Positions 6,423 to 28,747 of a stretch of 64,000 bases of DNA are shown here, one piece after another. Numbering within the stretch: position 1 is the first letter of the stretch; every line of letters starts with the position of its first letter. A program made the position numbers and the translations under genes. A model generated the notes under the pieces. The model was not told the DNA's origin and made no database searches. It was given only the letters and a program-made list of their open reading frames with translations. The DNA comes from an uncultured Planctomycetales bacterium (GTDB taxonomy: Bacteria > Omnitrophota > Gorgyraeia > Zapsychrales > JBDRMG01), in contig CAYZIY010000004.1 in the NCBI GenBank assembly GCA_964478715.1, positions 43,351-107,350 on the forward strand. The letters run 5' to 3'.

Positions 6423-7313
6423 TTATCGAATCGCGCTATTAAGACTGCCAGCGGGATTTCTATGGAAGAAATCCATCAATATGGGGCCGGCCACAAGAAT
6501 AGCCACAACCGGAAAGATGCAGAATAGAAGGGGAACCAGCATTTTCAGGGGCGCCTTGAGAGCAATCTGTTCTCCCCTGCGAAAACGGGCTAAACGCATA
6601 TCCTCAGAAAGAATGTTAAGAGCTTCGGCCACCGAAGTCCCCATCCGATCAGCTTGAATAAGCGTACGGGTAAAGGTCGATACATCGGTGAGATCATATT
6701 TTGAAGATAAGTCTTTTAGAGCCGCTTTGCGGGTTTTACCGACATTGATCTCCTGCATAATCAAATTCAGCTCATCGGTTAAAACAGACTTTTTGGACTT
6801 TTCAATCACCCACTTTAAGGCCAGCATAAAATCCAGCCCGGCATTGACACACAGCGCCAGAAGATCGATCATATCAGGAAGTTCTTTAATAATTTCGTTC
6901 TTTATTCGCTTAATCTTGGCCTTGAGCCAAATTTCCGGAAACATATAACCAAAAACAAAACAAAGCAAACCCCAAGCCATAATGAAATCGGGATTCTTGG
7001 GATAAAAAATGATCATGAGGATAATAATAAGAAGCTCCTTGATCAGAAGAAACTCCTCAGGAGTCAGGTTCACCCTCGCCACAGCAATATCCTTGGCCAT
7101 ACGCTTGCCCAGAGGACCAGCGCAAATCGGCTTATTGAAGGCGGCAACCGCCCGGGTAATCTGTTTGATTAAAGGAGTCTTTCTTTTCTCGACGGGAGCA
7201 TGCGGATCGATAGGACGCAAACGCGGCCTGTTTTCCACGTCAATGAAAGCCGTCACAAAAACCGTCAGGCAAATAATCGAGCTGAATATCAATAAAGTAA
7301 TTGCGGTAACCAT
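6423..7313 (-). CDS. tadC: Tad pilus inner-membrane platform protein TadC (GspF/T2SSF family).
   Basis: 296 aa with multiple TM segments and a GspF-like cytoplasmic region (…DELNLIMQEINVGKTRKAALKDL…). It is the second of two adjacent T2SSF-like genes, and its start abuts the stop of the preceding gene (shared 7313). Confidence 0.75.
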   Translation of the reverse strand: MVTAITLLIFSSIICLTVFVTAFIDVENRPRLRPIDPHAPVEKRKTPLIKQITRAVAAFNKPICAGPLGKRMAKDIAVARVNLTPEEFLLIKELLIIILMIIFYPKNPDFIMAWGLLCFVFGYMFPEIWLKAKIKRIKNEIIKELPDMIDLLALCVNAGLDFMLALKWVIEKSKKSVLTDELNLIMQEINVGKTRKAALKDLSSKYDLTDVSTFTRTLIQADRMGTSVAEALNILSEDMRLARFRRGEQIALKAPLKMLVPLLFCIFPVVAILVAGPILMDFFHRNPAGSLNSAIR

Positions 7314-8170
7314 TAAAAATCCTTGAATTTGCTGATTTTATAAATCAAAAACATCCCGATCAGCTGAAGACAGCTGGCCAAAACAAGCAGATTCTTCCCC
7401 TGCTGGGTTTCCAGCATGACATCAAAGAAATGCTTGTTGGTGGAAAGAACGATCATCAAAAAGCCGATCGGCAAAGCGCTCATAATGATTCCCTGGAGTT
7501 TGCCCTGCAGAGTCAAATTCCTGAGATTCTCTTTGATTTTATTGTTTTCCCGGATGGTGGTCACGATGCGGTTAAAGATCACAGGAAGGTTTCCTCCGGT
7601 TTCCCTGGCCAGAAGAATGGCCGTAATCAGCTGGTGGAGCGCGTTTGATGGCACCCGTTCATAAAGCCGGCTGAACGATTCCTCCAGAGAAACTCCCATC
7701 TTATTTTCTCCCAATAAGATGCCAAACTCCTGGCTGATCGGAGGCGGCATCTCTTCATTGACCACCTCCATGGCCTGAATAATGCTTAAACCTCCTTTCA
7801 GCGAGCTGGACATGATCATAAGGGAATCAACCAGTTGATTCTGAAATCTTTCTTTTCTCTGCTCGGCAAGCATTTTGACATAGATGCTGGGGCCGATGAA
7901 GCCCAAAACCACGCCGGCGACAACGCCGATAAGCCGAAAGGCGGGAAAAAAATGAAACCCGGCCAGACCCAAAAGAGGCGGTCCTAATGAAAAAAGAAGA
8001 ATCACTTTGGTGGGTTTAACCCGGACAAAAATCCGATCCATATCATCCACCAGGGACTCGGAACGCTTACGCTGCGCCGAAACATAAAGACCCGTGGCCG
8101 AGGGGATAATAATATAGGCGATTAAGGCCGCCGAAGCAAAAACCAGAGTGAGGATAACAACCAGAAGCAT
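7313..8170 (-). CDS. tadB: Tad pilus inner-membrane platform protein TadB (GspF/T2SSF family).
   Basis: 285 aa, TM-rich, with a T2SSF-like motif region (…LLGENKMGVSLEESFSRLYERVPSNALHQLITAILLARETGGNLPVIF…). It is immediately upstream of tadC. Confidence 0.75.
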   Translation of the reverse strand: MLLVVILTLVFASAALIAYIIIPSATGLYVSAQRKRSESLVDDMDRIFVRVKPTKVILLFSLGPPLLGLAGFHFFPAFRLIGVVAGVVLGFIGPSIYVKMLAEQRKERFQNQLVDSLMIMSSSLKGGLSIIQAMEVVNEEMPPPISQEFGILLGENKMGVSLEESFSRLYERVPSNALHQLITAILLARETGGNLPVIFNRIVTTIRENNKIKENLRNLTLQGKLQGIIMSALPIGFLMIVLSTNKHFFDVMLETQQGKNLLVLASCLQLIGMFLIYKISKFKDF

Positions 8171-8220
8171 ATTTTTATTGTATCAAATTTCTTTGTTGAA
8201 TTGAGTTTTGAAAAATAATT

Positions 8221-8652
8221 TTAAAGAACGCCGGCGCAGCAGGCATCGCAGCAGCGGTCGCATTTGATAAAATCCCCTGAGGCGCAATCTACATCACCGC
8301 AGGCCGCGGAATCCCATAGAGTATAAAGCATACAGCTTTTGCGGCAATCATCATAACATTGCTGGTAGTCATCGGCATCGTACCATTCATTATTAAAGGG
8401 ATTGAGCGCTTCTTCATCAATGATTTTATCGGGATCATACTGCATGCCCTGGCCGAAGATATCGCCGGTCATTTTCCAGCGGCCGGCAAACCCCCGGACA
8501 ATGAATTTCTGCATGGTTAAAACGGCTGCTAACAAGAGCGTTAAGAAAACCGAATATTCCAAAATAGCACTGGCCTTAGATTGTTTGAAATTCCTTAATA
8601 ACATGAATGGGTTTACTTTCTTTAAAAAGGATTCGCTCCGTCTTTGCCGCAA
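8221..8652 (-). CDS. Flp/TadE-like prepilin N-terminus fused to a small Cys-rich C-terminal domain.
   Basis: …KQSKASAILEYSVFLTLLLAAVLTMQKF… fits the [GA]/xxxxEY-hydrophobic Flp leader. The C-terminus is CYDDCRKSCMLY…CGDVDCASGDFIKCDRCCDACCAG. The true start may be the internal Met (MLLRNFKQSKAS…, about 8604), because 8622-8652 overlaps the upstream gene. Confidence 0.5.
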   Translation of the reverse strand: MRQRRSESFLKKVNPFMLLRNFKQSKASAILEYSVFLTLLLAAVLTMQKFIVRGFAGRWKMTGDIFGQGMQYDPDKIIDEEALNPFNNEWYDADDYQQCYDDCRKSCMLYTLWDSAACGDVDCASGDFIKCDRCCDACCAGVL

Positions 8653-11600
8653 GGAACAAAATGAACCTGAAAACCATTGCTGAAGCTAAAGGGCCACCTG
8701 TTCTGACGGAAACTATAATCCGCGCAGGTGTCTGACATCACGCCTTTCTTTAATAATCGCGAAGCCGCATCAAAGCAGGGTGAGCAATTGGACTTTTCGA
8801 CCACATATCTACCGGACAATTGATTACATGTCTGATCGAATCCCCAGCTAAACGCACCGCCACCAAGCGGATCCGCGGGGGTAGAAACACCGTCATTGTT
8901 AATCATAAACGATCCGTCTTCGCTTTTGTCACAATACGTTTCAATCGCGGCAATATCAGCCGCCGTTGATCCCTGCTGGGCCGGATGGCGGAAAATAAAT
9001 TTCCACAAGGGCACATTATTGGCAAATTTCAAGGAGAGATCCCGGTCCTGATCATAAGTGATCACCCGTGATTTGACCCGCCCGCCTTGGAAGCAATCTT
9101 TGGCAGCATCGAAACCGCTTAAATTATCATCATCGCAATGGCTTTCTGGATAAGCGTAGCTGTCCAGCAAGGTGTAACACCGGCTCATCCCCCGGTTTTT
9201 GTTATAGGTTTTTATCCACGGCCAGCGGGGCTCGGCCAATTCCTCTTTGCGGGAACATTTGCCGGCGCATTTTCCTGGCATCGCCGCCTGGGACTGGACT
9301 AAATGCCAGTATCCTTTGGGGTCTTTGTAACCGTAAATCACCCAGGGAGCCAGTTTAGCCAGTTCATAGCGATTATTTTCCTCCAAATCTTTCCAATACT
9401 TAATAATATCGTCTACTCTACCGTCATTGAGCAAGCCATCTATTTTATTCATGGCTGTTTGAAGCTCATCAAGTTTCTCCTGGGCCTCATCGCGGACACC
9501 TTGGAGATAATCCCTGCGGATTTCAAACATGCGGGCTTCTTTCAAAAGATTAAACATGCTAAAGAACAAAGCATCAAAATATGTTCTATCGGGAATATTA
9601 TGCGGAACCATGCAATATTCATAATTATCCGCGTCAGGAAAAGAATCCGGATTGGAGATCCCGATGGGATTATTAGACCAGCAATCGTCTCCGCAAGTAT
9701 TAAAACAATAATCGCCGGTGCCGGGATCGCTCCACGCGCATTTGATCATGCAATTATAGACGATCCCCGCTCTTTGAACCCGGTTAGTGATTTGATTATC
9801 AAGGCAGTTAATAATACCCGGTAATGTTTGGCCGTTACAGACCGCCGGAGAGCCGGGATCATTAAATGCGACAGAATAACTCCCGACGCCGTTGGCCCAT
9901 CCGTTGATGTAACGATGGATTTTATCTATACTTTCACGTAACTCCATCAGCTTTCCGTCGTTGGAATCAAGAACGCTCATCGCCTCAGCAATCCAGGTTG
10001 AGAATTTCGCGTGCAAGCGCTCCGGCGTTTTATTTAAAATACTTTTGGCCCAGTCGATAAACTCATCAATCAGAACGCGGGAATAATCGGTATTATCCTC
10101 AACCCAATAATGCCATCCGCCGGGTGGAGGGCATGACCAACTTGTCAGGTCCTGACCCGGATCTTCCCAAGCGCAGTCATAATCCCAATCTTCGGGATCG
10201 TGATCGACCAACTGCCGCGCGCACAGCCAACCATTGTGACAGTCCCGGTCGCAGTGCTTGCCCGGGCAATCATTCTGATAAGGAAAATTCACAGAACAAA
10301 AATCATCCACGCCTTTTTTCCAGAAAGGAGGCTCTTCACTCTCGAGATCCGGACATTCGTTTTGCGGAATTTCCAAATCATCCGCATAATGAAAATTATC
10401 CGTGAGATTATTAGTAATACAGCAGTTGGCGGGATTCCAGTCATTGAAATGATACTCATCAATGGAGCCAAACCCGCAAGTGGGCGCCGTAGAAGCTGAA
10501 GTGACAAAATAAGAATCGGCAAAATCAAAGGCAAAAACCTGCGGACCGGAATCTGTCGGTAGAGTAAAGCTTCCATTGAGATTCAGATTACCGCAGTCCG
10601 GATGATAACTATGACACCAGTCGCACTCATACGTTCGATCTTCGGGCACAGCCGGAGGCCCCAGACCGACCGTGCCGGATTGACCGTCGTCAGGCAGATT
10701 CCATTTCTGATACTCTTTCGCCAATTTCCAGAAATAGGGATAAAGGATGCCTTCCGCATCCTCTTGTCGCCAGAAACCATCCACAGAAGCTGGATCGATA
10801 TTGATCTCATAATCATCCGAAGGACCGGCGGGGTTTAAAGGACTGGTCTTTTTATCCTTGCGGGTATCACCCCTCCAGTATCGATTATTATCATCCCGCC
10901 CGACGAACTCCCGAAAAGACACGAATTGCCCCGCTCCGGGATTATTGTTGTATTTATTCTCAGCGTATCGATCATAGACATTGGGCCAGTCATGATCCGG
11001 GCAATCAGTTGAAACCCCGCATTCGTCCGGCCCGCCGGTATCACAGCAGCTCGGACGGAGATTGGGCTCATCGGCAATCGGTGGTAAAACATCAGGCCTC
11101 AGCCCGGAATCTCCTTTAAAGGTATTGTTGTAGCTGGGCTCGCTGGGATAAGTCTTCAGTTTTCTAAAAAATACTATTTTTTTTCCGAATGGCGTAGTTA
11201 TTTTTTCTTCAAACCAGGTTCCAGTTCTACCCTCTGTCTTGGGAAGACAACAACAATTGCAATAGGCAGGTTTGGGGTCTTCACAGCATTCATGCTTGGG
11301 ACCAGCGTCCGGACAATAATTCCCGACCGGATCCCACAAGCCCCAGTTATCATTGACACCTTTCCATTCTTTTAATAAAAACTCTCCAATGGCTTTCTGA
11401 AATTTTTCAATCGCTTCTATCCGCGAATCAGCTCCCACCAAAGCCAGGCGGGAAACACGCTCATGCATATGATAGGTGAGGCGAGAAACTTTATCGTCAG
11501 TGGCATCAGGCCCCCACATCCCGTCCATGTCCATGTCCATAAAGTCGATCATCTTCTCCTGGTCCATCACCGCGTTTTGCAAGCCCAGCATCACACCACG

Positions 11601-12149
11601 CTCTAAAAATCCATCAACAATATCCAGGTCAATAGCTTCCAACATTTTGTTCCACTGATCGGTAATGCCGGGCTCGATCTCGGTTAAAGAAATACTTATC
11701 GATATAGCAGTAGCAACGGCTGCTATGATAATCCCCACCGCTAAAGAGGCCCCGGAGCCGCCGGTAGCAATCGTTACAATAACGGCCAGGATGACGCTGG
11801 CAATAAAAGTAACGACCGCCGTAAAGACATCGGTATGCTTGCAGGCCGTGAGATCGTCTCCGAACTCTTCGTCGCCCGCGTGTTGATAATAATACTCCGC
11901 GTAAGAAGCCATTTCCGAGGCCAAGAAAGCGGCCGCCTGATTGCTGGCTAAAGTGGCGGCTGTTTTGGACTGATTGATCCGTCCCAGATTGAGCGTGGCC
12001 GCGAAAAAGATCAGAGCTACCGCGAAAACCAAAACAAGAATCACCGCTACCTGGGCCCGCCTGGAAAGCAAGCTAGAGGATTTTGAAACAACCTTTCCAT
12101 TTATTTTACGGGAATGTCTTTTGATAAGATGGTTAAATATTTGAAACAC
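8622..12149 (-). CDS. TadG-like pilus-associated giant protein (1175 aa) with an extremely Cys/Trp/Asp-rich extracellular region.
   Basis: The N-terminus …LLSRRAQVAVILVLVFAVALIFFAATLNLG is TadE/G-like, followed by a second hydrophobic segment. The remaining roughly 1000 aa carry dozens of Cys in CC, CxC and CxxC clusters (CCEDPKPAYCNCCCLPK, CDWCHSYHPDCG, CPGKHCDRDCHNGWLC) plus W/D/P-rich stretches. It sits between the TadE-like gene and tadB in the operon. Confidence 0.6.
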   Translation of the reverse strand: MFQIFNHLIKRHSRKINGKVVSKSSSLLSRRAQVAVILVLVFAVALIFFAATLNLGRINQSKTAATLASNQAAAFLASEMASYAEYYYQHAGDEEFGDDLTACKHTDVFTAVVTFIASVILAVIVTIATGGSGASLAVGIIIAAVATAISISISLTEIEPGITDQWNKMLEAIDLDIVDGFLERGVMLGLQNAVMDQEKMIDFMDMDMDGMWGPDATDDKVSRLTYHMHERVSRLALVGADSRIEAIEKFQKAIGEFLLKEWKGVNDNWGLWDPVGNYCPDAGPKHECCEDPKPAYCNCCCLPKTEGRTGTWFEEKITTPFGKKIVFFRKLKTYPSEPSYNNTFKGDSGLRPDVLPPIADEPNLRPSCCDTGGPDECGVSTDCPDHDWPNVYDRYAENKYNNNPGAGQFVSFREFVGRDDNNRYWRGDTRKDKKTSPLNPAGPSDDYEINIDPASVDGFWRQEDAEGILYPYFWKLAKEYQKWNLPDDGQSGTVGLGPPAVPEDRTYECDWCHSYHPDCGNLNLNGSFTLPTDSGPQVFAFDFADSYFVTSASTAPTCGFGSIDEYHFNDWNPANCCITNNLTDNFHYADDLEIPQNECPDLESEEPPFWKKGVDDFCSVNFPYQNDCPGKHCDRDCHNGWLCARQLVDHDPEDWDYDCAWEDPGQDLTSWSCPPPGGWHYWVEDNTDYSRVLIDEFIDWAKSILNKTPERLHAKFSTWIAEAMSVLDSNDGKLMELRESIDKIHRYINGWANGVGSYSVAFNDPGSPAVCNGQTLPGIINCLDNQITNRVQRAGIVYNCMIKCAWSDPGTGDYCFNTCGDDCWSNNPIGISNPDSFPDADNYEYCMVPHNIPDRTYFDALFFSMFNLLKEARMFEIRRDYLQGVRDEAQEKLDELQTAMNKIDGLLNDGRVDDIIKYWKDLEENNRYELAKLAPWVIYGYKDPKGYWHLVQSQAAMPGKCAGKCSRKEELAEPRWPWIKTYNKNRGMSRCYTLLDSYAYPESHCDDDNLSGFDAAKDCFQGGRVKSRVITYDQDRDLSLKFANNVPLWKFIFRHPAQQGSTAADIAAIETYCDKSEDGSFMINNDGVSTPADPLGGGAFSWGFDQTCNQLSGRYVVEKSNCSPCFDAASRLLKKGVMSDTCADYSFRQNRWPFSFSNGFQVHFVPCGKDGANPF

Positions 12150-12176
12150 ATTACCCTCGCTTATACTTTTGCGTCA

Positions 12177-12455
12177 TCAATAATGAATCATGTTAAGCTT
12201 TTCAAACTCGTAAAAAATGGGATTGGTCTGCTTCATGGGTCCTTCATCACCTTCAAGAAGGCCCCAGTCTTCCTCGATCCCCTGGGTCAATTGATCATCG
12301 TGAGATTTCCGGCCGCTGGCCAAGCTAGCCCCGGCCCAGCGAAAAGCCATCACGCAGGCATAAATTAAAATAAGAACGATGATAAAGCTGAAGGTGAATT
12401 CGATCATCACTTGAGCTTTTCCTGTTTTGATTTTTGCTTTCAAAGACAATAACAT
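12177..12455 (-). CDS. tadE: TadE-like minor pilin / pseudopilin.
   Basis: 92 aa; …KTGKAQVMIEFTFSFIIVLILIYACVMAF… has the Flp/TadE leader with E at +5 followed by a TM helix. Confidence 0.6.
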   Translation of the reverse strand: MLLSLKAKIKTGKAQVMIEFTFSFIIVLILIYACVMAFRWAGASLASGRKSHDDQLTQGIEEDWGLLEGDEGPMKQTNPIFYEFEKLNMIHY

Positions 12456-12467
12456 TAATCCTCATCC

Positions 12468-13910
12468 TTATTGAATCGGCATTTGGTCATCACTGACATC
12501 GACCGTCCATCTGTGACCGCCGCGATCCTCGATCCGGCTGCGGATATAAAAAACTTTTTGCTCTTCATCGAAGCAGTTTTTAAACATATTGGCATCACTG
12601 AGACAGTCATTACAGGATTCCACATAGGGATTGACCTTATAATTAGGAACACCCTCACCTACGTCCCAACTTTTCCCCGTCCCATTGCCGCACAGGCGCC
12701 CGGTATCATTACTGAGCTGAAATTTGCGCTCAATCAAAGACAACCGGTCGGTCATGCGGGTGTTGCGCACCACCTGGCCGCCGGCCGCAACTAATTTTCC
12801 CTCTTCAATGCGCAGCAGTGTCCCGTCGCGGGTTTCGGTATAGATTCTGGTCTCATCCATCAGGCCCGGCTTTTTCTGATCCGTTCCCCCGGGTTCAGCC
12901 GGTGTCGGCCCTCCCACATAGTCATAGGTATTATAGGTTTGATCATAATCGCCTTCCTGCATATCCAAAACCCAGGCATATTTGACGATCCCTGAACCTT
13001 CACACCCGTATATTGAAGAAGGAGAAGAGGAATACTGCCACGGGGCTGTCGTATTAAACTGAGCCTGATTAGTGTCTTCCAGGCCGAACACTTTTTCTTC
13101 TTTCAGGTCTCCGTCGACATCGTAACTCAGCGTAGCGCCTTCCTCAATAAGAAAATTCTCTGTCAGGCCTGGAACCTTGCGCCATTGCCAGGCCATTCGA
13201 TTGGGATACATGACATCGCCGTCTCTATAAATGAATCCCCCATAATGTATTGTTTCTCCTGTTGCGCCGTTGCGATTATAATCAAATCTTTCTGTGTCGT
13301 TTGAATCCCAGTCCGCGCTCACTCCTGCCGGCCCGGGAATTTTCGTATAAAAAACAGGACAATCGAAGCCCGCGCATTCCCCGGCTTCCATCGAATCGGG
13401 AACAAAGACAGAATCCGGATGTTCCGTGCACTGGCCTTCATCATCCGCAAAACAATAAATCCGATAGGCGGCCACGCTTAAAGGGAAATGCTCGCCGTTA
13501 ACATATAAATCCATCACCGGCACTTCGTCATCCTTTCCGAATTCCGCCGGCATCATCAATTTGTTGGTCATACTGCCGCCGCCGCCAAACACATAAGCGC
13601 TGCGGGCTTCGGGACCGTATTTGCCGCTGCTGCCGGTCACATCAACATCCTTGCGGTCCTCGATCACCAGAACGCTGGCCATGATGCGGGAGGAATTCTC
13701 TGCCTTCCCGGAAGAATCAAGCTGCCAGGAAGAATGAAAAGACTTTGTTAAAGCCAGGCGCGTCGCTTTCATCCAGTGGTTTTGCACATTATTGCTGTGG
13801 CTGGCGTAGCGGATCAACAGCCCCAGCATAAAAAGCAAAATCACGCCGAAAGCGGCGAGTTCGGTGGCGGTTTGGGCTGATAATAATTTACGTTTTTTTC
13901 GATTTCTCAT
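12468..13910 (-). CDS. TadF-like pseudopilin with a large (about 430 aa) C-terminal extension.
   Basis: The N-terminus KRKLLSAQTATELAAFGVILLFMLGLLI has a TadE/F-type leader. The C-terminal region is Gly/Asp/Tyr-rich with scattered Cys. It lies immediately downstream of the Flp array. Confidence 0.55.
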   Translation of the reverse strand: MRNRKKRKLLSAQTATELAAFGVILLFMLGLLIRYASHSNNVQNHWMKATRLALTKSFHSSWQLDSSGKAENSSRIMASVLVIEDRKDVDVTGSSGKYGPEARSAYVFGGGGSMTNKLMMPAEFGKDDEVPVMDLYVNGEHFPLSVAAYRIYCFADDEGQCTEHPDSVFVPDSMEAGECAGFDCPVFYTKIPGPAGVSADWDSNDTERFDYNRNGATGETIHYGGFIYRDGDVMYPNRMAWQWRKVPGLTENFLIEEGATLSYDVDGDLKEEKVFGLEDTNQAQFNTTAPWQYSSSPSSIYGCEGSGIVKYAWVLDMQEGDYDQTYNTYDYVGGPTPAEPGGTDQKKPGLMDETRIYTETRDGTLLRIEEGKLVAAGGQVVRNTRMTDRLSLIERKFQLSNDTGRLCGNGTGKSWDVGEGVPNYKVNPYVESCNDCLSDANMFKNCFDEEQKVFYIRSRIEDRGGHRWTVDVSDDQMPIQ

Positions 13911-13929
13911 GATATCTAACTAAAGCGTG

Positions 13930-14241
13930 TCAATAATTCGGGACATTGGTCTGGCCTGTTTTTGTTTCGGTGGCATAGGCCGAGTCTTTCTTTTTCGACC
14001 AGTAGCTTCCAGCTTCCTCCTGAATCGACAATTCGGACACACTGTTTCCGACAGTGGTAAAAGTGATGTTGCTCACCGCGACCGTCGGATCGTATTGATC
14101 GCCGAAATTATCTATCTGCCCTCTCCAGCGACCCTGAATCCCGCGCTTGATATAAATGGTCATGGCCAGCAGAGCGCCGGCCACGACAATGATAAGAATC
14201 GAATATTCAAGCGTTGACTGGGCTTTTCGTATGCATTTCAT
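13930..14241 (-). CDS. flp: Flp-family pilin paralog 7 (103 aa).
   Basis: MKCIRKAQSTLEYSILIIVVAGALLAMTIYIKRG: prepilin motif A/QSTLEY plus a hydrophobic helix. RBS AAGAGG is upstream. Confidence 0.65.
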   Translation of the reverse strand: MKCIRKAQSTLEYSILIIVVAGALLAMTIYIKRGIQGRWRGQIDNFGDQYDPTVAVSNITFTTVGNSVSELSIQEEAGSYWSKKKDSAYATETKTGQTNVPNY

Positions 14242-14281
14242 TTTATCTAACCTCTTACTTGCGCGGCTTATCTCTTTCGCG

Positions 14282-14632
14282 TTAATACGTGCGGTTCGTT
14301 AATCCCATATTCACGATCGAAGAGCTTTCTTCTTCGGAAGAATCTCCGTAAATATAATCGATCGCGCCCCCCGGGCTTTGCAATAATTGTTTCCCCTGAG
14401 TATAACGGACAGCGGAATAGCTCTCTTCAATATAGCCGCTGGTTTCATCGATCTGCTGTTCGGCGCATTGCTGAATGCCGACCTGATCCGATGCCATTTT
14501 GATGGTCGCCTGGACACTGCGCATCAGAAAAGGGCGCATTAAAATTAAAAAGGAACCCACCACGCCGGCCACCAGAAGATATTCCATCAAGGATTGGGCT
14601 CTGTTATTAAAATGTCTCGATATTTTTCTCAT
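14282..14632 (-). CDS. flp: Flp-family pilin paralog 6. Start refined to the internal ATG at 14632; the track ORF is extended upstream with no pilin context.
   Basis: MRKISRHFNNRAQSLMEYLLVAGVVGSFLILMRPF from the ATG at 14630-14632. The leader is A/QSLMEY. Confidence 0.55.
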   Translation of the reverse strand: MRKISRHFNNRAQSLMEYLLVAGVVGSFLILMRPFLMRSVQATIKMASDQVGIQQCAEQQIDETSGYIEESYSAVRYTQGKQLLQSPGGAIDYIYGDSSEEESSSIVNMGLTNRTY

Positions 14633-14633
14633 A

Positions 14634-15005
14634 TTAATCGGCCTCACCGGGCGGCGCTGTTTCTCCCTCGGATATGACGGAAGTCGTGTCTGTGTCCGCG
14701 CCCTCATACTCTTGTCCTGTAGCCAGCGGAAACAATTGATCGATATCTTGGGTTTGCTGTTTGATCTCGCGAGTGGAATTAACATAATACGGCTCGTACT
14801 GATCAACGAAATCACCCGCGGATCCGGAAACATAAAAAGCGGTTTTGGCATCGGCGAAGGAGCGGTCATGGGCTCCTTTCATCGCCGCCATGAAACCGCG
14901 CTGGACATAGACGCTTATTCCTGTAATCGCGGCCACGACCAAAGCCAGCAAAATCGCCTGTTCGCTGATAATCTGAGCCTTTGTTTTCTTAATTCCTTTA
15001 AACAT
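14634..15005 (-). CDS. flp: Flp-family pilin paralog 5 (123 aa).
   Basis: MFKGIKKTKAQIISEQAILLALVVAAITGISVYVQRG; the C-terminal tail is acidic and Thr-rich. Confidence 0.6.
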   Translation of the reverse strand: MFKGIKKTKAQIISEQAILLALVVAAITGISVYVQRGFMAAMKGAHDRSFADAKTAFYVSGSAGDFVDQYEPYYVNSTREIKQQTQDIDQLFPLATGQEYEGADTDTTSVISEGETAPPGEAD

Positions 15006-15171
15006 TCTACGCCTTATTTATATTAAAGCTTGTTGATAATTGAAGTCAACATTTAATACTAATATTAATAATTCTGAAAGAAACTGCCGAAAAAACTGGC
15101 CTGCCACAATATCTTCCTCCCGGCAGGCCAGTTCTTCTCATTCTTTGATCAACGTGTACTCGACAAACTGA

Positions 15172-19748: not shown

Positions 19749-19823
19749 AGAGATCCTAAGCTCTAAACTCAAAATGCTAAGAAAATTCGGTTTTGGGCTT
19801 CCTTAGAATTTAGGATTTAAAGC

Positions 19824-20168: not shown

Positions 20169-20177
20169 CGAGGGAGA

Positions 20178-22334: not shown

Positions 22335-22340
22335 AAGAAC

Positions 22341-24047
22341 CTATTGATCTAATCGGTAAACAATCGGTATGCTCAGGGTCAGCTCTGAAAAACCGCTTTT
22401 TTTCGGAAAGCCGTCATAAGGAGAAAGCTCTTTGACAAGGTTCAAAGCATCCTGATCGAATAATTCATGTCCGGAGGACTCCTGAACGCGAACAGTGCTT
22501 AAAGAACCGTCTCTTTTGAGGTGCAGGGACAATTTGACGGTTCCGCTCAAGCCCAATTCTCGAGCTTGGGACGGATAAATAATTCTACGGGCAATTTTTC
22601 TCTGAACTGCCCGGGCATAAGGCATCAATTCGCTGGGGATGGTCACAGAGTAAACCGGTTGCTCCATACCCGATATTCCCCGGGGGGTCATTACTTTTTT
22701 CCCGCTCTGCGGTAAAACAGCCTGAACAGGTCTAATCCGCCCAGGCATCATGATTTCCTCTCCCTTGGCGTACACAGGAGGTTCCAGGCGTTCATCCAGA
22801 AGACTTAGATTAAGAGGATATTCATTGGAATAAGATTCTCTCTCACCCTGACGTAGAATGCTGGGGGATATTGTAATAACGAGCTCGGTATCCGTGTCAT
22901 TCGAGCGGGTCTTTTTGCGAAACAGTAAACCCACAACAGGAATATCGCTTAAGAAAGGCACTCTTTCAAGAGTCTCGCCACGATTTTCTTTAATCAAACC
23001 AGCAATCACAATGGTTTCATTTTCTTTCACGTAAAGGCTGGTCTCTGTGTTGCGGGTTGTAAAAGCGGGCTGCCCGCTGTAATTGGTAGATCGGTCAATG
23101 TCACTGACTTCGATGTTAAGATTCAGTTCGATCGCATCCTTACCGTAAATGGTCGGCTGGATATCGATACCCACCCCGTAATCCTTAAAGGTCACATCCT
23201 GCTGAGAGGCACCGCTCGATGAAATCGATGTGGTCACAATAGGAACCTCGCCGCCGACCAGGAAATTGGCATCGCGGCCGCTGCGCACCACCAGCTTGGG
23301 GCGCGACAAAACCCGGGCCTTGCCTTCGTTGACCAAAGCGTTTAGCGTGGTTTGGATCGCGGTCGAACGGGCAAAATCTCCGAGCTTAAAGATATTGCCG
23401 AAATTCTCGATATGACCCGAAGGCACCGTCTCGTTGTAGGTGAGAGCATCGGTCCAGTCGATACCGAGTGTCTCGCTGTATGTTCCCGTGAGCTCGGTTA
23501 TTTGCGCGTCGATCTGCACCAGATCGTTCGTACTCTCTTGCTTGACCAAATTCATCACCACCATAAAAAACGGATCGATGATGCGTTCAAATTCCAACAA
23601 ATCTGTTGGGGAAACCTCTCCGGTGGCAATGATCTTGCCTTCCTTGCGGTCAATCTCCAAATCAATGCCCTTGAGATTGTCTTTCTCCATCAAATTCTCA
23701 ATACGTGTTTTCACCGAACCCAATTCGCGGTCGGCCACATGGATATCAATAGTCCGCTTCCCGTAGCGATCCCAAATGTAAAGTGTGGTATCGCCGGCGT
23801 TTCGGCCGATAATGAGAATTTTATCATCTTCCATTTCGACGATATCGATGACGCCCGGAATCGTGATAGAAACGCGAAAAAGTTCATAAGCCCGGATGTT
23901 TTCTAAGTCTCCCCGGGTCAGATAAACTTCATCGTCCATCAACTCGGTAAAAGTAAAAGCCTGGGCGCTGCGATGAAAAACAAATACACTGCCCGTCGCT
24001 AGAAGAATCAAAATGCCGATCGTTAAGACTGTTTTATTTTTAAACAT
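22341..24047 (-). CDS. cpaC: Tad secretin CpaC/RcpA with a fused C-terminal TonB_C domain.
   Basis: Signal peptide MFKNKTVLTIGILILLATGSVFVF. Secretin core …PKLVVRSGRDANFLVGGEVPIVTTSISSSGASQQDVTFKDYGVGIDIQP…. The C-terminal about 95 aa …RIIYPSQARELGLSGTVKLSLHLKRDGSLSTVRVQESSGHELFDQDALNLVKELSPYDGFP… matches the TonB C-terminal consensus (YP..A…G.eG.V.v.f.I..dG.v…v..SSG…LD.aAl). Confidence 0.8.
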   Translation of the reverse strand: MFKNKTVLTIGILILLATGSVFVFHRSAQAFTFTELMDDEVYLTRGDLENIRAYELFRVSITIPGVIDIVEMEDDKILIIGRNAGDTTLYIWDRYGKRTIDIHVADRELGSVKTRIENLMEKDNLKGIDLEIDRKEGKIIATGEVSPTDLLEFERIIDPFFMVVMNLVKQESTNDLVQIDAQITELTGTYSETLGIDWTDALTYNETVPSGHIENFGNIFKLGDFARSTAIQTTLNALVNEGKARVLSRPKLVVRSGRDANFLVGGEVPIVTTSISSSGASQQDVTFKDYGVGIDIQPTIYGKDAIELNLNIEVSDIDRSTNYSGQPAFTTRNTETSLYVKENETIVIAGLIKENRGETLERVPFLSDIPVVGLLFRKKTRSNDTDTELVITISPSILRQGERESYSNEYPLNLSLLDERLEPPVYAKGEEIMMPGRIRPVQAVLPQSGKKVMTPRGISGMEQPVYSVTIPSELMPYARAVQRKIARRIIYPSQARELGLSGTVKLSLHLKRDGSLSTVRVQESSGHELFDQDALNLVKELSPYDGFPKKSGFSELTLSIPIVYRLDQ

Positions 24048-24069
24048 AAAGGACCCTCTTTTTGTTTGT

Positions 24070-24906
24070 TTATCTTAACCCCTGAAAAATACTATCCTCA
24101 TAAAGTTCAATCGTTGACGGCTTGGGCCGGGGCCGTTTATCGCTAACGTCTTCTTCGAAGTCGACCTCATCGGGATCCTGGTAACCAATGTCCAGCCCTT
24201 GCGCATTATTGACATAATTCGAAAATGCCTCCCAGTCGCTGGGCGGCAAAATATAAGCACGCGAATCTACCGAGGAGCGCATAAAAAGCTGAAGCTTGCC
24301 GTTTTTGGAAGCAAAAGTCAAAAGACCAGCTTCCTGCGGATCCATGGCGAAGGTAATTACCATCTGATTACCGCTGGTCTTGGGCTTTCCGCTGATTACC
24401 CCGTCAACAGCTAATACCAAAGCATTTTGAAAAAGCGTAAAAGACATTAAATCCTTCTTGGAAGGATTGTAAGGATCGGTGGGAACATAAACATGAGAAA
24501 CAATATCCACTCTGTCTCCCGGCATCACCAAGCCGCCGACGGCAGCCAGGCGATCAACCATTACGGTCACAGCCCGCATGCCCTGCGGGGTAACGGCCGC
24601 CAAAGATTCGGCTGAAGCCATAACGGGCTTTCCCGCCCCGGAATCGATTTGCTTGAGACGATTGTCGAGATTGCGCAATTGATGCGCCAGATCATGATCA
24701 TTTTGTTCCAGCATGCGAAATTGCTCGGCCAGCCTGGCCGCTTCTTTCTCGCGGAAAATGGTGGCAAACTTTTCCGTTTTCTGACCAACGGTGGAATTGA
24801 TATAAATATTCGTTAAAATCACCGCCGCGAAAGCGGTCGCGACCGCCACAATTCCCAAAACCAGCTTCTTTTTATCCAATGTTTTAAAATCAATAGCCAT
24901 GAGCAC
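24070..24906 (-). CDS. cpaB: Flp pilus assembly protein CpaB/RcpC.
   Basis: N-terminal TM LVLGIVAVATAFAAVILTNIYI. Central …GMRAVTVMVDRLAAVGGLVMPGDRVDIVSHV… is typical of the CpaB SAF-like domain. It lies directly upstream of the secretin. Confidence 0.75.
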   Translation of the reverse strand: MLMAIDFKTLDKKKLVLGIVAVATAFAAVILTNIYINSTVGQKTEKFATIFREKEAARLAEQFRMLEQNDHDLAHQLRNLDNRLKQIDSGAGKPVMASAESLAAVTPQGMRAVTVMVDRLAAVGGLVMPGDRVDIVSHVYVPTDPYNPSKKDLMSFTLFQNALVLAVDGVISGKPKTSGNQMVITFAMDPQEAGLLTFASKNGKLQLFMRSSVDSRAYILPPSDWEAFSNYVNNAQGLDIGYQDPDEVDFEEDVSDKRPRPKPSTIELYEDSIFQGLR

Positions 24907-24914
24907 CTTCTTTT

Positions 24915-25871
24915 TTATTCGAGCAGGTCTTCATTCGTTTTAACCTCGATCTCTTCTTCCAATTTATTAACATAATTCAAAACGGCCTGTTGCTGCCTTT
25001 CAAGGGTCAGCTGGTCGATCAACCAGTCTTTGACTTCTGAAAACGGCTGCGGCTCTCCACCCCGTTTTTCTTCGAGTTTAATAATCGTATATCCTTTGGG
25101 GCCTTTGAACACACTGCTGAGCATCCCTTCTTCAAGGGTTAATAGCGCAACCATTAATTTCTCATCGGTGATGTCGGCTTCATTCACATAGCCGAGATCT
25201 CCGCCTTCAGCGGCCGAGTCGCTGATCGAACGCTCCCGGGCCAGCGCGGCAAAGTCGGCGCTTTGCAAAAGCTGGATACTGATCTCATTGGCACCCTGCT
25301 GGGTGGCGGTCACAATTTCGCGGATCTTGTATTCGGTGGGTTCGGTGAAAAAATCCTTGTTTTCATTATAAAATTCACGGGCTTCAAGTTCCGAAACATC
25401 AATTTCCTCAGTAATTTTGGTGATCACTTCCTGGACCAGAAGCGTTCTTTTAAATTCGTCAATCGCCTCCTGAATCCGCGGATCATCGGCTACGCCGCTG
25501 CGCTTGGCATCTTGAACAAACATCTCCTGGCGAATCAATTCCTGAAGGATCAGTCTTTTATTTTCCGCGCTTGCAACATCAGCATCGGGCAAAAGCTCTT
25601 TGATGGCATCGAGCCGTTCATTAAATTCTCGGAGGCTGATCGTCCAGCTGCCCACTTTAGCCAGGGTGTCGGGCCCCATCACAGTCTCTTTGGGCTGATC
25701 AGGCTGATCACCGGCAGCCGGCGCTTTATCATCTGCGTTTTTCTTTAATGAAGGAAAGAAGTCTTCTAAAAATGTCAGCTTATCACAACCGCTTAGCGTC
25801 AAGGAAACCGCAAAAAAACAAATGACCAATGAAGAGATGAAAAATTTCTTTATAGTTTGACCGGATTTCAT
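24915..25871 (-). CDS. SurA/PrsA-like lipoprotein with a PpiC-type (parvulin) peptidyl-prolyl isomerase domain.
   Basis: Lipobox LTLSGC. The parvulin region is …SADFAALARERSISDSAAEGGDLGYVNEADITDEKLMVALLTLEEGMLSSVFKGPKGYTIIKLEEK…. Confidence 0.65.
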   Translation of the reverse strand: MKSGQTIKKFFISSLVICFFAVSLTLSGCDKLTFLEDFFPSLKKNADDKAPAAGDQPDQPKETVMGPDTLAKVGSWTISLREFNERLDAIKELLPDADVASAENKRLILQELIRQEMFVQDAKRSGVADDPRIQEAIDEFKRTLLVQEVITKITEEIDVSELEAREFYNENKDFFTEPTEYKIREIVTATQQGANEISIQLLQSADFAALARERSISDSAAEGGDLGYVNEADITDEKLMVALLTLEEGMLSSVFKGPKGYTIIKLEEKRGGEPQPFSEVKDWLIDQLTLERQQQAVLNYVNKLEEEIEVKTNEDLLE

Positions 25872-25979
25872 ATTCCCTCCTTAAATAAATTTTTTATATA
25901 TAATTAATTATAATAAGCTTGATGACCGAAAACAAGGGCTTTATCACGAATTTACCAAAAGTTCATTTTTTTGGATTTA

Positions 25980-26222
25980 TTAAGCAGGCCGAAGAGGACA
26001 ATTACTGCAATTCTCGCCGGGGCCGCAGCCATCCCCCAGGCAATCGTCAGGACAATTCACGCAGGTCTCACCCGGCTCGCAGCCATTACCCGGACAGCTA
26101 CATTTGATGCCCCAGCAATCGACTAAACAACTCGCGCCGTCTTCATCTTCTTCGCAAACCCAGTTCCCGCATGTTCCTCCTGCTCCATCATGAGGAAGAC
26201 AGCGCCTAAAAAACGCACACAA
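25980..26222 (-). pseudogene. Out-of-frame 3' module of the upstream Cys-rich pilin-fusion paralog. It is homologous to the in-frame C-terminal module of the 469-aa paralog.
   Basis: MCAFFRRCLPHDGAGGTCGNWVCEEDEDGASCLVDCWGIKC…CLGDGCGPGENCSNC aligns with GFPHDGEYGTCGNWVCDPGEDCENCIVDCWGVACNC…CLGDGCGPGENCGNC of 27338..28747. It has no leader peptide of its own and sits 8 nt past the stop of 26231..27298 in a different frame. Confidence 0.45.
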
Positions 26223-26230
26223 AAAGCTTC

Positions 26231-27298
26231 TTATTTGAGGCAGTTACAATTTTTATAATTAGAATTTACGCAAGTATTATAAGACATATTATCGCTAAAC
26301 GTACATATGGTACGATTATCAAATCTTTTGACACACTTTTTCCAATAATAGCTAACGTACAATTTTGTGCATCTATTATCATCAAGGCAATTACTTTTGT
26401 TTCGGCTAGAGCAAGGTGTGGGCTGTGGTCCTTGTGGGGATTGCTTGCAGACAAAAGGGCAAGGGTCAGTCTTACACATTCCAAGAGCATCACAACATTT
26501 TGTCACGCCTCTTTCCCAAATACATCCACGGTCTACGCAATCTTCTTGGTCGAAGAGACATCCACAGTCACATTCGCAGCACTCCCCTACTTCATCGCAT
26601 TCAGGTGAGCAAATCAAGTCTCCACACCGTCCGCAGTCCTGGCAACAGTTGTACGCATCTTCCCCATCTTCACATACACCGTTAGGACATTGCGGCACAA
26701 TGCAATCTCCACTTAAATTAGTAGGCTCCGCCGGAGTTCCCGGCGGCCAGGGAGGGTTGGCCGGGTCAATGCTGGCTGTGTCCACATTATAACTATCTTC
26801 GCCATTGTCCACGCAGCATAAACCATCATCAGCTTCCCAGCAGTTATCCGCGCAGCAGGTATATTTATCCTCTCCGCAAGCCGCGTCGCAAACCCCGTCA
26901 ATCACACAGTTGCTGGCACAACAGTCCTGAGCGCACCATTTTGCGCTGGTGCGATCGTCTTCGTCTAACCCGGAACAACATACATCGCAGGGATTACCGT
27001 ATTGATCCACTCCACAGCCGTCATTGCAGTCTTCACAGCAGTATTCATCCGTGCTGCAGTCATCTTCGATACCGGGAGAGCATACTCCGTCACCGCAAAC
27101 ATCTTGAGGGGTTAATCCAGGATTTCCCGGTTTTTTGATCGGACCTTTGATGGAATCTTCACTGGCATAATCGAAATTTTTTAACAGGGCATTGATGGAG
27201 CGGATCAGGTAAGGGCCCATCAGGATGGCACCGGCCATCACCAGGGTGATGACGGTTGAAAATTCAAGGATAGACTGGGCTTTTTTTCCGTGGCTCAT
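26231..27298 (-). CDS. Flp/TadE-type prepilin leader fused to a large Cys-rich extracellular domain (paralog A, 355 aa, apparently frameshift-truncated).
   Basis: N-terminus MSHGKKAQSILEFSTVITLVMAGAILMGPYLIRSINALLKN (A/QSILEF leader plus TM), then DDCSTDEYCCEDCNDGCG…CCADNCWEADDGLCCVDNGED…PANPPWPPGTPAEP…. Roughly 20% of residues are Cys. Confidence 0.6.
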   Translation of the reverse strand: MSHGKKAQSILEFSTVITLVMAGAILMGPYLIRSINALLKNFDYASEDSIKGPIKKPGNPGLTPQDVCGDGVCSPGIEDDCSTDEYCCEDCNDGCGVDQYGNPCDVCCSGLDEDDRTSAKWCAQDCCASNCVIDGVCDAACGEDKYTCCADNCWEADDGLCCVDNGEDSYNVDTASIDPANPPWPPGTPAEPTNLSGDCIVPQCPNGVCEDGEDAYNCCQDCGRCGDLICSPECDEVGECCECDCGCLFDQEDCVDRGCIWERGVTKCCDALGMCKTDPCPFVCKQSPQGPQPTPCSSRNKSNCLDDNRCTKLYVSYYWKKCVKRFDNRTICTFSDNMSYNTCVNSNYKNCNCLK

Positions 27299-27337
27299 AT
27301 TTTTGAGAAAAACAATCGTCCTAATGGATAGAATGCA

Positions 27338-28747
27338 TCACCAATGCACAACGCATTCCCCGCAATCTTGGGGGCAGGTCGTGCAGCCTTCACCGTGATC
27401 ACTGCGGCAATCCCCGTCTCCGCAGCAATCGGTGCAGTCTTCAGGGCAGGTGAAACAAGTTTCAGCATTTTCGGATCTGCAATCCCCATCGCCGCAACAA
27501 GGATAGTCAATATTTCCATAATTACAGTCTTGCGGGCAATTTCCGCAATTCTCGCCGGGGCCGCAGCCGTCTCCCAGGCAATCTTTAGAACAATTCACGC
27601 AGGTCTCGCCCAGCTCACAGATATCATTCCCACAGTTGCATGCTACGCCCCAGCAGTCTACAATACAATTCTCGCAATCCTCTCCTGGGTCGCAAACCCA
27701 ATTTCCGCAGGTTCCGTATTCCCCGTCATGAGGAAAACCGCACTTTGCAGAAAAACCGCCATGGGGATTAGCCATGCTAGTTACAAGCTGCCCATTTTCA
27801 CACCGCCAATCACCCATGCCCGGCCACGGCCCCTCTTGCACCCAAGTGGCATTACATTCCTCATAAGCTTGATTGCTATAAAGCTTATTTTTCTTAAGGC
27901 ATATTTGTGGAGGGCAACAGTAACTATCATTGGCACAGGTGTTTGTTACACCCACATCACAAAATTTAAACGTTCCATCATCATTAAGCTCAAACGGGTA
28001 TTCGCACCCATCAAACCAATTATGGTAAGGGTTTATAGTATCTCTGCCAGGGTTAACACACACTTTCCCATAAGAACGTTGTTGGCATTTTCCACAGCAG
28101 CAATCATCACTTGTTTCACAGGTCTCCCATTCTACCACGCAACCCAATGGACAATCATCACTTTGATCGGCAGGCTCCGCCGGAGTTCCCGGCGGCCAGG
28201 GAGGGTTGGCCGGGTCAATGTCGGCTGTGTTCTCATTATAACTATCTTCGCCATTGTCCACGCAGCATAAACCATCATCAGCTTCCCAGCAGTTATCCGC
28301 GCAGCAGGTATATTTATCCTCTCCGCAAGCCGCGTCGCAAACCCTGTCAATCACACAGTTGCTGGAACAACAGTCTTCGGGGCACCAGCTCAAGCTGGTA
28401 CGATCGTCTTCATCTAACTCATGACAACAGGTCGGAGAAGCCTCTCCTTCGGCATTGATTCCGCACCAATCACAGTCTTCGCAACAGTAATCTTCGCTGT
28501 CAGGATTGTCTTCTATCCCTCCGACGCATATTTCATCGCCGCAGACATACTCGGGTGGAATAAATTCATCGCTCCCCGGTTTTTTGAGGGGGCCCTTAAT
28601 GGCTTCTTCGGTGGCGATGTCGTAATTCTTTAACAGGGCATTGATGGAGCGAATCAGGTAGGGGCCCATCAGGATGGCACCGGCCATCACCAGGGTGATA
28701 ACGGTCGAGAATTCAAGGATAGACTGGGCTTTTTTTCCGTGGCTCAT
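27338..28747 (-). CDS. Flp/TadE-type prepilin leader fused to a large Cys-rich extracellular domain (paralog B, 469 aa, intact).
   Basis: The first 41 aa are identical to paralog A. It shares about 215 bp that are near-identical at the nucleotide level (28166-28380 versus 26727-26940) and ends with the GTCGNWVC…CGPGENCGNCPQDC…CGDGDCRSDHGEGCTTCPQDCGEC module. Confidence 0.65.
   Translation of the reverse strand: MSHGKKAQSILEFSTVITLVMAGAILMGPYLIRSINALLKNYDIATEEAIKGPLKKPGSDEFIPPEYVCGDEICVGGIEDNPDSEDYCCEDCDWCGINAEGEASPTCCHELDEDDRTSLSWCPEDCCSSNCVIDRVCDAACGEDKYTCCADNCWEADDGLCCVDNGEDSYNENTADIDPANPPWPPGTPAEPADQSDDCPLGCVVEWETCETSDDCCCGKCQQRSYGKVCVNPGRDTINPYHNWFDGCEYPFELNDDGTFKFCDVGVTNTCANDSYCCPPQICLKKNKLYSNQAYEECNATWVQEGPWPGMGDWRCENGQLVTSMANPHGGFSAKCGFPHDGEYGTCGNWVCDPGEDCENCIVDCWGVACNCGNDICELGETCVNCSKDCLGDGCGPGENCGNCPQDCNYGNIDYPCCGDGDCRSENAETCFTCPEDCTDCCGDGDCRSDHGEGCTTCPQDCGECVVHW

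Follow-up and report, generated by a model that had tools for sequence, protein, structure and literature searches.

Omnitrophota are widespread, mostly uncultured and ultra-small, and are inferred to be predators or parasites. The present analysis concerns a Tad/Flp pilus locus of this phylum, in which pilin-like proteins carry long cysteine-rich tails, on a 64,000-nt stretch of contig CAYZIY010000004.1 (the window; all coordinates are window positions). The machine that stands beside the giant genes of this phylum has so far been noted in outline only. West-Roberts et al. 2023 (10.1101/2023.11.21.568195) described a conserved secretion locus resembling the type II secretion system (T2SS) that precedes the giant genes of Omnitrophota and comprises gspD, gspE and gspF homologs, rcpC, a Rotamase_2 peptidyl-prolyl isomerase (PPIase) and many small genes with class III signals; the giant genes themselves have N-terminal C39 domains. 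Seymour et al. 2023 (PMC10066038) recorded Tad complexes across Velamenicoccia, which were inferred to be predatory or parasitic, including Ca. Velamenicoccus archaeovorus, whose Tad locus was expressed in co-culture with Methanosaeta. For the Kil Tad pilus of Myxococcus xanthus, Herrou et al. 2025 (PMC12075869) describe interchangeable tips of KilL/M/N, the homologs of TadE/F/G. Such a tip is a heterotrimer of these minor pilins joined via an alpha-1N helix bundle. The C-terminal domain that its large KilN/TadG member exposes is variable, numerous disulfides are predicted in the tips, and the authors proposed tips of this kind for TadEFG generally (PMC12075869). Modular pilins are established, and widespread, among type IV pili (T4P) of the N_methyl type, as exemplified by PilB (vWA module) and PilC (lectin module) of Streptococcus sanguinis (Raynaud et al. 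2021, PMC8179133).

All components of the locus of West-Roberts et al. were found in the window, the giant C39 gene included. The original prediction, made from the window sequence, had taken the system for an unrecognised Tad variant; it corresponds instead to the conserved T2SS-like locus upstream of Omnitrophota giant genes (10.1101/2023.11.21.568195). Read together with Seymour et al. and Herrou et al., this places the machine, its link with a giant gene and the big disulfide-bearing TadG-like tips among the known kinds. The apparently undescribed and unnamed part is a protein family in which an Flp module is joined to a hypervariable cysteine-rich tail, and a literature search returned no paper joining cysteine-rich proteins with Flp/Tad pilins or with Omnitrophota pili. 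On balance we regard it as probable that the locus encodes a lineage-specific Tad/Flp (type IVc) filament machine whose modular Flp pilins show cysteine-rich domains for contact with prey or host.

Tad machine and prepilin-type leaders

A Pfam search of the window open reading frames (ORFs) was carried out, and the ORFs listed in the original prediction were all present at their coordinates. All genes of the Tad system lie on the minus strand, as do the other genes given below unless stated otherwise. The core of the Tad machine claimed for this strand was confirmed and consists of TadC (T2SSF, PF00482, E = 6.5e-15) at 6423-7313, TadB (T2SSF, PF00482, E = 5.7e-17) at 7313-8170, a 718-aa fusion of a CpaE/TadZ-like ParA/MinD protein with a CpaF/TadA T2SSE ATPase (PF00437, 8.9e-59; PF13614, 1.4e-16) at 20178-22334, an RcpA/CpaC-type secretin at 22341-24047 and RcpC/CpaB (PF16976, E = 3.9e-21) at 24070-24906. 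In the CpaE-CpaF fusion, AAA_31, ParA and CbiA domains fall within aa 4-240 and PF00437 covers aa 364-639; full-length matches occur in many phyla, and the nearest homolog among species-representative genomes (64% identity) belongs to a Candidatus Omnitrophota metagenome-assembled genome. The secretin combines the Secretin domain (PF00263, 5.4e-44) with a T2SS-T3SS_pil_N domain (PF13629, 1e-6) and a C-terminal TonB_C (PF03544, 1.6e-14). TonB_C lies at aa 490-566, and the secretin-TonB_C fusion was also seen in the related loci L001, L086, L090 and L091. The machine operon further holds a SurA-like periplasmic PPIase (Rotamase_2, E = 7.2e-18) with a lipoprotein-like N-terminus at 24915-25871, a gene kept in L001, L002, L003, L086, L090 and L091. 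Among the Pfam families named in the original prediction, T2SSF, T2SSE, Secretin and TonB_C were thus recovered, whereas window proteins stayed below threshold for Flp_Fap, TadE and Tad.

Beside these machine parts, thirteen proteins share one common prepilin-type leader, [KR]x[GA]/Q[ST]xxE[YF] (the slash marks the predicted cleavage site) followed by about 20 hydrophobic residues, and the motif is complete in 12 of the 13. A strict six-frame scan of the 64 kb, requiring a basic stretch, [GA], Q/S, xxx and E[YF] ahead of about 18 hydrophobic residues, returned 9 sites, which without exception fall on the minus strand within 12416-28729; looser inspection added four leaders, those of the 51-aa pilin, the 123-aa pilin, the 127/143-aa pilin and the 1175-aa protein. 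Seven tandem small pilins had been predicted and were confirmed within 13930-16366, with lengths of 51 aa (16211-16366; MRRIKKRQA/QNLIEY..., L083 orthologue 52 aa), 68 aa (15946-16152, in a 75-aa ORF reaching 16173; Flp-type, PF04021 score 23.2 bits, cut-off 23.7), about 111 aa (111/114; 15561-15896), 110 aa (15172-15504, with the motif YIKRGVQGRYR...GDQF), 123 aa (14634-15005; KA/QIISEQ), 116 aa (14282-14632, starting at an internal Met of a 195-aa ORF at 14282-14869) and 103 aa (13930-14241). Their consensus is [KR]x[GA]/Q-S-T-L-E-Y, then ...M-x-x-Y-I-x-R-G-[IV]-Q.

The remaining leader proteins of the distal half are a TadF-like large minor pilin of 480 aa (12468-13910; SA/QTATEL; 9 Cys), with orthologues of 424 aa in L082 and of 603 aa with 5.8% Cys in L083, a TadE-like minor pilin of 92 aa (12177-12455; KA/QVMIEF), a TadG-like giant minor pilin or anchor of 1175 aa (8622-12149; RRA/QVAVIL; 45 Cys) and a pilin of 127 aa (8221-8604; ORF of 143 aa) with a C-terminal 10-Cys tail. 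Ile replaces Glu at +5 in the 1175-aa protein, as in TadG-type proteins, and each of its three homologs occupies the same position of a Tad locus. The protein also has a second long hydrophobic stretch at aa ~106-155, possibly two more transmembrane helices. A leader had been claimed for five large or cysteine-rich proteins (469, 355, 480, 1175 and 143 aa); the motif and the hydrophobic stretch were found in all of them, except that the 1175-aa protein is without Glu5. What stands of the claim of an unusual Tad/Flp machine is the unusually high number of class-III-leader proteins, several of which have big extracytoplasmic regions.

A set of 41 leader proteins from the window locus, L004, L082, L083 and L084 was scanned with Pfam. 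Class_IIIsignal was matched by 12 of them (best E = 4.3e-6) and Flp_Fap (PF04964) by 5 (best E = 5.7e-5), while Tad (PF13400) and TadE (PF07811) gave weak matches in 2 proteins each (best E = 0.014 and 0.042, respectively). N_methyl (PF07963) was matched by only 2 of the 41, at E = 0.016; the leader is of the Flp/class III type with Gln+1. Since the window pilins themselves matched below threshold only, their prepilin nature is argued mainly from the motif, its confinement to the cluster and the family-level matches to hidden Markov models. An hhalign comparison of the small-pilin alignment with Caulobacter PilA gave a weak match in the right register, at a probability of 12.8%, and was not used.

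The statement that the window holds no tadV/cpaA was borne out. Peptidase_A24 (PF01478) had no match in 43 ORFs scanned, which comprised all distinct ORFs of 150 aa or more that are not shadowed by a longer gene, together with some shorter ones, and a GGGD[VI]K-type motif was absent from all frames of the window. TadV/CpaA may be encoded in the genome outside this window. Nothing was found in support of the DUF192 protein encoded beside the ATPase gene as a substitute for the prepilin peptidase, this being a small soluble domain common in these loci. Processing of the leaders by the Peptidase_C39 domain of the adjacent giant protein is unlikely as well, because the leaders are without a double-glycine motif.

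Modular Flp pilins with cysteine-rich tails

Against a background of 0.70% Cys in 15 other window proteins, the 469-aa protein contains 13.6% (64 Cys) and the 355-aa protein 14.1% (50 Cys), both with peaks of 13-14 Cys per 50 aa and an acidic character (D+E ~20% and isoelectric point (pI) ~4 in the former). The 127/143-aa pilin has 10 Cys, all in its last 50 aa, which amount to 6.9% of 143 aa or to 7.9% of 127 aa from the likely start. The 1175-aa protein has 3.8% Cys (45), of which 19 are invariant in 4 homologs, and the 480-aa protein, with 1.9% (9), is not cysteine-rich. Cysteine richness, put at up to about 20% for five proteins in the original prediction, is accordingly real for three of them (469 aa, 355 aa and the short tail of the 127/143-aa pilin), moderate for the 1175-aa protein and wrong for the 480-aa protein.

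The two most cysteine-rich proteins are paralogs. Pilin A (469 aa, 27338-28747; MSHGKKA/QSILEF) consists of an Flp module at about aa 1-55, a Pro-rich linker and an acidic cysteine-rich tail, the C-terminal third of the protein showing CGDGxC...CPxDC-type repeats; pilin B (355 aa, 26231-27298) starts with the same kind of leader. The two share 75% aa identity over the first 200 aa and have unrelated C-terminal modules. At the DNA level their 5' 600 nt are about 90% identical (repeats D1 and D3, 89-90% identical at a spacing of 1449 bp), and the pair is evidently a tandem duplication. Downstream of the 355-aa gene, at 25995-26213 inside an ORF at 25980-26222, lies an out-of-frame cysteine-rich module remnant with homology to aa 332-405 of pilin A (66% aa and 76% DNA identity); a frameshift, a pseudogene and a leftover cassette are each conceivable. 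Paralogs with unrelated C-terminal modules, together with this out-of-frame remnant, point to module turnover. The 51-aa pilin aligns to aa 5-40 of pilin A with 42% identity (E = 2e-9), and an AlphaFold2 (AF2) model of pilin A, built from 34 sequences, gives a helix at 5-26, a Gly-Pro kink and a helix at 28-51 with a predicted local distance difference test (pLDDT) score above 90. Judged by this alignment and model, the conserved N-terminus of the family is a whole Flp pilin.

When residues 1-345 of the 469-aa protein were searched with HMMER against 1.84 billion cluster representatives (E <=1e-3), a family of 41 cluster representatives was obtained, nearly all aligning from query residue 1-6. 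The N-terminus of the family reads KKA/QSxIEYxxxIxLVxAGIILMGPYVIRSINAHxKxWEDSVxDSxxDPL. The Q, P, R and N are shared by all of 34 aligned members, and at least 90% of these have Glu+5; the mean pairwise identity of the mature N-terminus (45 aa, 40 members) is 50%, whereas the tails can hardly be aligned at all. In the 27 members that reach 200 aa, the median Cys content is 11.2% (range 4.7-15.9%), with 13.7% D+E and 1.5% His. CC pairs occur in all 27, CCxDC and CPxDC in 15 each, and the Cys count is even in 19.

The cysteine-rich tails matched no entry of Pfam or NCBIfam and no PDB sequence, and no model exists there for the family. An NCBIfam scan of ten unknown proteins gave no real match, and PDB sequence searches with the 469-, 1175- and 480-aa proteins gave nothing meaningful. 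The structure comparison suggested for the cysteine-rich region was fruitless, Foldseek against the PDB returning no match for the AF2 model of pilin A (mean pLDDT 49.9). The orthologue in L001 (P0012; L001 10001-11410, 469 aa, 10.9% Cys), which is the first gene of its operon, carries a PT-HINT/intein-like domain in the tail followed by a cysteine-rich peptide of ~45 aa. Another member (P0025, 473 aa, 15% Cys) is encoded ~6 kb from DsbA-like and MauE/DoxX genes (L087 1281-2452 and 8001-9422), which could form a disulfide-forming system.

In addition, leader ORFs were scanned in 86 loci, about 80 of which are CpaE-CpaF loci from many phyla, and those that reach 200 aa and exceed 5% Cys were found only in the window, L001 and L083. 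The L083 gene (12423-14150) occupies the position of the 127-aa pilin gene and encodes at least 576 aa with 15.5% Cys, being cut by the contig end; a word-index search for homologs of the 127-aa pilin itself found only the query. Taken with the family encoded first in the machine operon, this pilin marks the cysteine-rich extension of Flp-type pilins as a recurring trait of the lineage, at two positions of the locus.

Locus order and neighbouring genes

Gene context was seen for nine family members. For six of the nine, from five genomes (the two window paralogs, P0012, P0022, P0036 and P0034), the PPIase-RcpC-secretin genes follow directly downstream, so that a family gene stands first in the machine operon of the window, L001, L086, L090 and L091; the contig of P0047 is too short to show gene context. 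The proximal order is PAS kinase and response regulators, cysteine-rich leader protein, PPIase, RcpC, secretin-TonB_C, CpaE-CpaF and DUF192. It recurs in L001, L086 and L091, and also in L090, without the kinase genes and ending inside the gene after the secretin. The distal order runs from DUF192 through an opposite-strand zinc-ribbon gene, a large helix-turn-helix (HTH) protein and the seven small pilins to the TadF-like, TadE-like and TadG-like genes, the Cys-tailed pilin, TadB and TadC. It is complete in L082 and is kept in L083 as far as the Cys-tailed pilin, at which the contig breaks off; in L084 and L085 it is found from the TadE-like gene onward only.

The two operons of the window are separated by conserved genes, namely DUF192, the opposite-strand zinc-ribbon gene and the HTH gene. 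The DUF192 protein (PF02643, E = 2.5e-18; 19824-20168) is encoded beside the ATPase gene. By tblastn, 36 of 88 loci from many phyla have a DUF192 homolog at a distance of a few kb after the ATPase, and the protein seems to be a common accessory of Tad loci of this class that has gone unrecognised. The small double-zinc-ribbon protein (19470-19748, plus strand) is conserved in position and carries Pfam DZR marks in relatives; its gene sits between the DUF192 and HTH genes, with tblastn matches in L001, L002, L082 and L083. The 797-aa protein (16806-19199) is encoded in a low-GC stretch (~38%) and consists of a transposase-like HTH at the N-terminus, a long acidic linker and a conserved C-terminal domain of ~450 aa, for which no Pfam match and, with a family profile, no meaningful PDB match were obtained. 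An insertion sequence or transposase was considered for this gene and rejected, its position being kept in L001, L082 and L083, with no inverted repeats and no DDE domain. Since the order of the distal half recurs in relatives, the 797-aa gene is a conserved member and not an insertion, and its product is possibly a regulator.

Upstream of the family genes lie a response regulator (28857-29222), a hybrid PAS/GAF histidine kinase (29245-33165) and an HTH_17 response regulator (33184-33792), and in L001, L086 and L091 the family gene is likewise preceded by PAS kinase and response-regulator genes. At the other end, downstream of TadC, a giant ORF (2-5824) runs off the window. Its N-terminal part of at least 1941 aa contains a transmembrane segment and Peptidase_C39 at aa 158-282, shows 41% identity to the ORF after TadC in L084 and fits the 'Archaeovorin'-type giant genes of Omnitrophota.

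Farther from the locus, a replication-origin region was observed at 51443-63578, with gyrA, gyrB, dnaN and dnaA on one strand followed by yidC, parA and parB on the other, and the sign of the GC skew flips at ~58-60 kb of the window. A secreted-looking protein of 1098 aa with internally repeated segments and no Pfam match is encoded at 45326-48622, and a 207-aa ankyrin-repeat protein at 42808-43431. Promoter and terminator scans of the window were uninformative, promoter counts being at the level of shuffled sequence.

Interpretation and comparison with known systems

In the filament machine that we favour, a prepilin peptidase encoded elsewhere would cleave after the [GA] preceding Gln+1. The TadB/TadC platform and the CpaE-CpaF ATPase would polymerise the small Flp pilins, the filament leaving the cell through RcpC and the secretin, while the TadE-like (92 aa), TadF-like (480 aa) and TadG-like (1175 aa) proteins would prime assembly and form a tip whose large variable domains are stabilised by disulfides, as in Kil. 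The 469- and 355-aa modular pilins would join the filament through their Flp module (aa 1-55), at the tip or sparsely along it, and the Pro-rich linker and hypervariable acidic disulfide-rich domain carried by this module would be presented outside the cell; the 127-aa pilin encoded before TadB and its L083 counterpart of at least 576 aa would work likewise. The PPIase may help the modular pilins to fold, and control may be exerted by the upstream PAS kinase and response regulators. The likely function would be recognition of, and attachment to, the surface of prey or host, together with the adjacent giant protein. Display of the cysteine-rich modules on fibre or tip is inferred from sequence and gene order.

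Several points weigh against such a filament. Prepilin cleavage and filament entry of the cysteine-rich proteins are predictions, and the window proteins, which fall below the Pfam thresholds for Flp_Fap, TadE and Tad, show sub-threshold Class_IIIsignal matches only. The window is without a prepilin peptidase, and Peptidase_A24 is also not in the Pfam-marked gene lists of 11 related loci (L001, L082-L091). Two of the nine family members with visible context (P0025, and P0026 on a short contig) lie outside Tad loci. Flp subunits that carry a 300-400-aa domain may be too large to fit into the body of the filament. Beyond its two helices, the AF2 model of pilin A scores below 50-70, leaving the tail with no usable model, and the model of the 1175-aa TadG-like protein (4 sequences) has a mean pLDDT of 29.6 and is unusable; the description 'disulfide-knotted' is therefore drawn from composition only. 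Many Omnitrophota, moreover, are thought to be anaerobic, which makes extracellular disulfides less certain.

A second reading, possible though in our view unlikely, is that the locus is a machine for secretion or surface assembly, with a short T2SS-like pseudopilus or a bindosome-like array, and that the cysteine-rich and giant proteins are its cargo or form the array. It would account for the giant gene after TadC in the window and L084, for thirteen pilin-like genes, several of whose products are too bulky for a fibre body, and for the conserved periplasmic PPIase in the operon; class-III leaders are also found on large extracellular non-pilin proteins, the sugar-binding proteins of the Sulfolobus bindosome. 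West-Roberts et al. read the locus as T2SS-like and tied it to the giant proteins (10.1101/2023.11.21.568195). All components, however, are of the Tad type (RcpC, a CpaE-like protein with a CpaF-type ATPase and two T2SSF proteins of the TadB/C type), and pilins of Flp size (51 and 68 aa) are present. Substrates of the T2SS use Sec or Tat signals and not prepilin leaders. In the closest studied predator system, moreover, a real Kil pilus is polymerised (PMC12075869).

It is improbable that the cysteine-rich tails are effectors or toxins, that is, defensin- or knottin-like mini-proteins carried to prey by the pilus and sometimes released by autoproteolysis. The PT-HINT/intein-like domain of P0012 with its ~45-aa cysteine-rich peptide speaks for this reading, as do the hypervariable tails, the swapped C-terminal modules in the paralogs and the adjoining decayed remnant, and a predatory or parasitic life has been inferred for Velamenicoccia by Seymour et al. 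(PMC10066038). No toxin domain, however, was recognised with Pfam or NCBIfam, and a HINT domain is known in only 1 of the 41 members. The tails are also strongly acidic (pI ~4), whereas most membrane-active defensins are cationic.

Metal-binding or redox-active domains of a metallothionein-like kind, serving metal sequestration or electron transfer along the filament, are very doubtful. Cys contents of up to 14-16% with many CC, CxxC and CxxxC motifs would suit them, as would the anaerobic life ascribed to many Omnitrophota. Conductive pilins have also been predicted in this phylum (PMC10066038). Even Cys counts nevertheless predominate (19 of 27 long members) with very low His (1.5%), the conserved spacing resembles CGDGxC...CPxDC repeats in other search matches, several of which have signal-peptide-like N-termini, and a DsbA/MauE pair lies near one orphan member (P0025). 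In addition, a chain exported through a class-III leader arrives unfolded and could not bring cofactors assembled beforehand. That the N-termini are ordinary Sec signal peptides or anchors of periplasmic or envelope cysteine-rich proteins unrelated to a filament is most unlikely. In its favour, the window proteins have no above-threshold Pfam pilin match, no prepilin peptidase is nearby, and the conserved I/V-N-A that follows the hydrophobic stretch might look like a signal-peptidase site of the AxA kind. Against it, all of 34 aligned members have Gln+1 and at least 90% have Glu+5, both where the hydrophobic helix begins, which is the prepilin hallmark; the 51-aa pilin shares the motifs including Y-x-x-R-S-I-Q/N-A, where cleavage would leave ~14 residues, the motif is confined to the Tad cluster in the six-frame window scan, and a family gene comes first in the machine operon in five genomes.

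Within the filament machine preferred here, the Flp-fused cysteine tails might further be polymorphic, cassette-exchangeable determinants delivered by the pilus, either prey-specificity receptors or released disulfide-rich effectors, a proposal that we offer tentatively and consider rather unlikely. Diversification by duplication and module swapping is suggested because the paralogs share their 5' half, a decayed remnant adjoins them and one orthologue bears a HINT domain. If the proposal were true, the Tad pilus of the ultra-small Omnitrophota would be a programmable contact or delivery device working with the adjacent giant protein. The analysis also supplies a concrete parts list for the machine, with seven Flp pilins, a TadE/F/G-like tip triad and an Flp fusion family tightly linked to the machine operon, and these proteins are specific candidates for surface-contact molecules.

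Compared with the systems of West-Roberts et al. and Seymour et al., the window agrees in phylum, in its secretin, T2SSE, two T2SSF proteins, RcpC and Rotamase_2 PPIase, in its many small class-III-signal genes and in the downstream giant gene with an N-terminal C39. The window locus is near oriC, and the LiM locus likewise lies at 12-30 kb of its genome (PMC10066038). The word 'cysteine' does not occur in either paper (10.1101/2023.11.21.568195; PMC10066038), and their available parts give no large leader proteins, no Flp-fusion family and no TadE/F/G-like triad. With the archaeal class III signal proteins (PF04021; EppA/DUF361-type) the leader proteins share Gln+1 and Glu+5, and in Pfam the small pilins match Class_IIIsignal best; the archaeal group, to which the Sulfolobus bindosome proteins belong, also sets a precedent for prepilin leaders on large extracellular proteins. 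The leader proteins of the window differ in that the host is bacterial with an outer-membrane secretin and that all window pilins score below the gathering cut-off.

The Kil pilus (PMC12075869) shows several points of likeness, namely several small Flp pilins including candidate 'adapter' pilins, a triad with a very large TadG-like member, a variable C-terminal domain and many predicted disulfides, and a Tad pilus in a predator, the phylum of the window organism having inferred predatory members. In contrast to that system, the TadG-like family of the window (1175-1322 aa) has no detectable similarity to known families, a single triad lies in the main locus where Kil has four dispersed triads, and Flp pilins fused to tails of 5-16% Cys are added, none of which were found in the part of PMC12075869 available.

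As for modular pilins, the words 'Tad' and 'Flp' do not occur in Raynaud et al. (PMC8179133), whose pilins have a globular pilin fold behind a type IVa/b leader of the N_methyl kind (IPR012902), whereas the carrier here is a helix-only Flp-type Tad pilin and the grafted module an unclassified hypervariable cysteine-rich domain. The layout is nevertheless alike, with a pilin module bearing a class III leader, a short linker and a bulky graft that is proposed to be exposed at the tip. A pilin module, a linker and a grafted non-pilin module were found in the family, with the N-terminus conserved and the tail variable in 34 aligned members, and the family extends the idea of the modular pilin beyond type IVa pili to Tad systems with their minimal Flp pilins.

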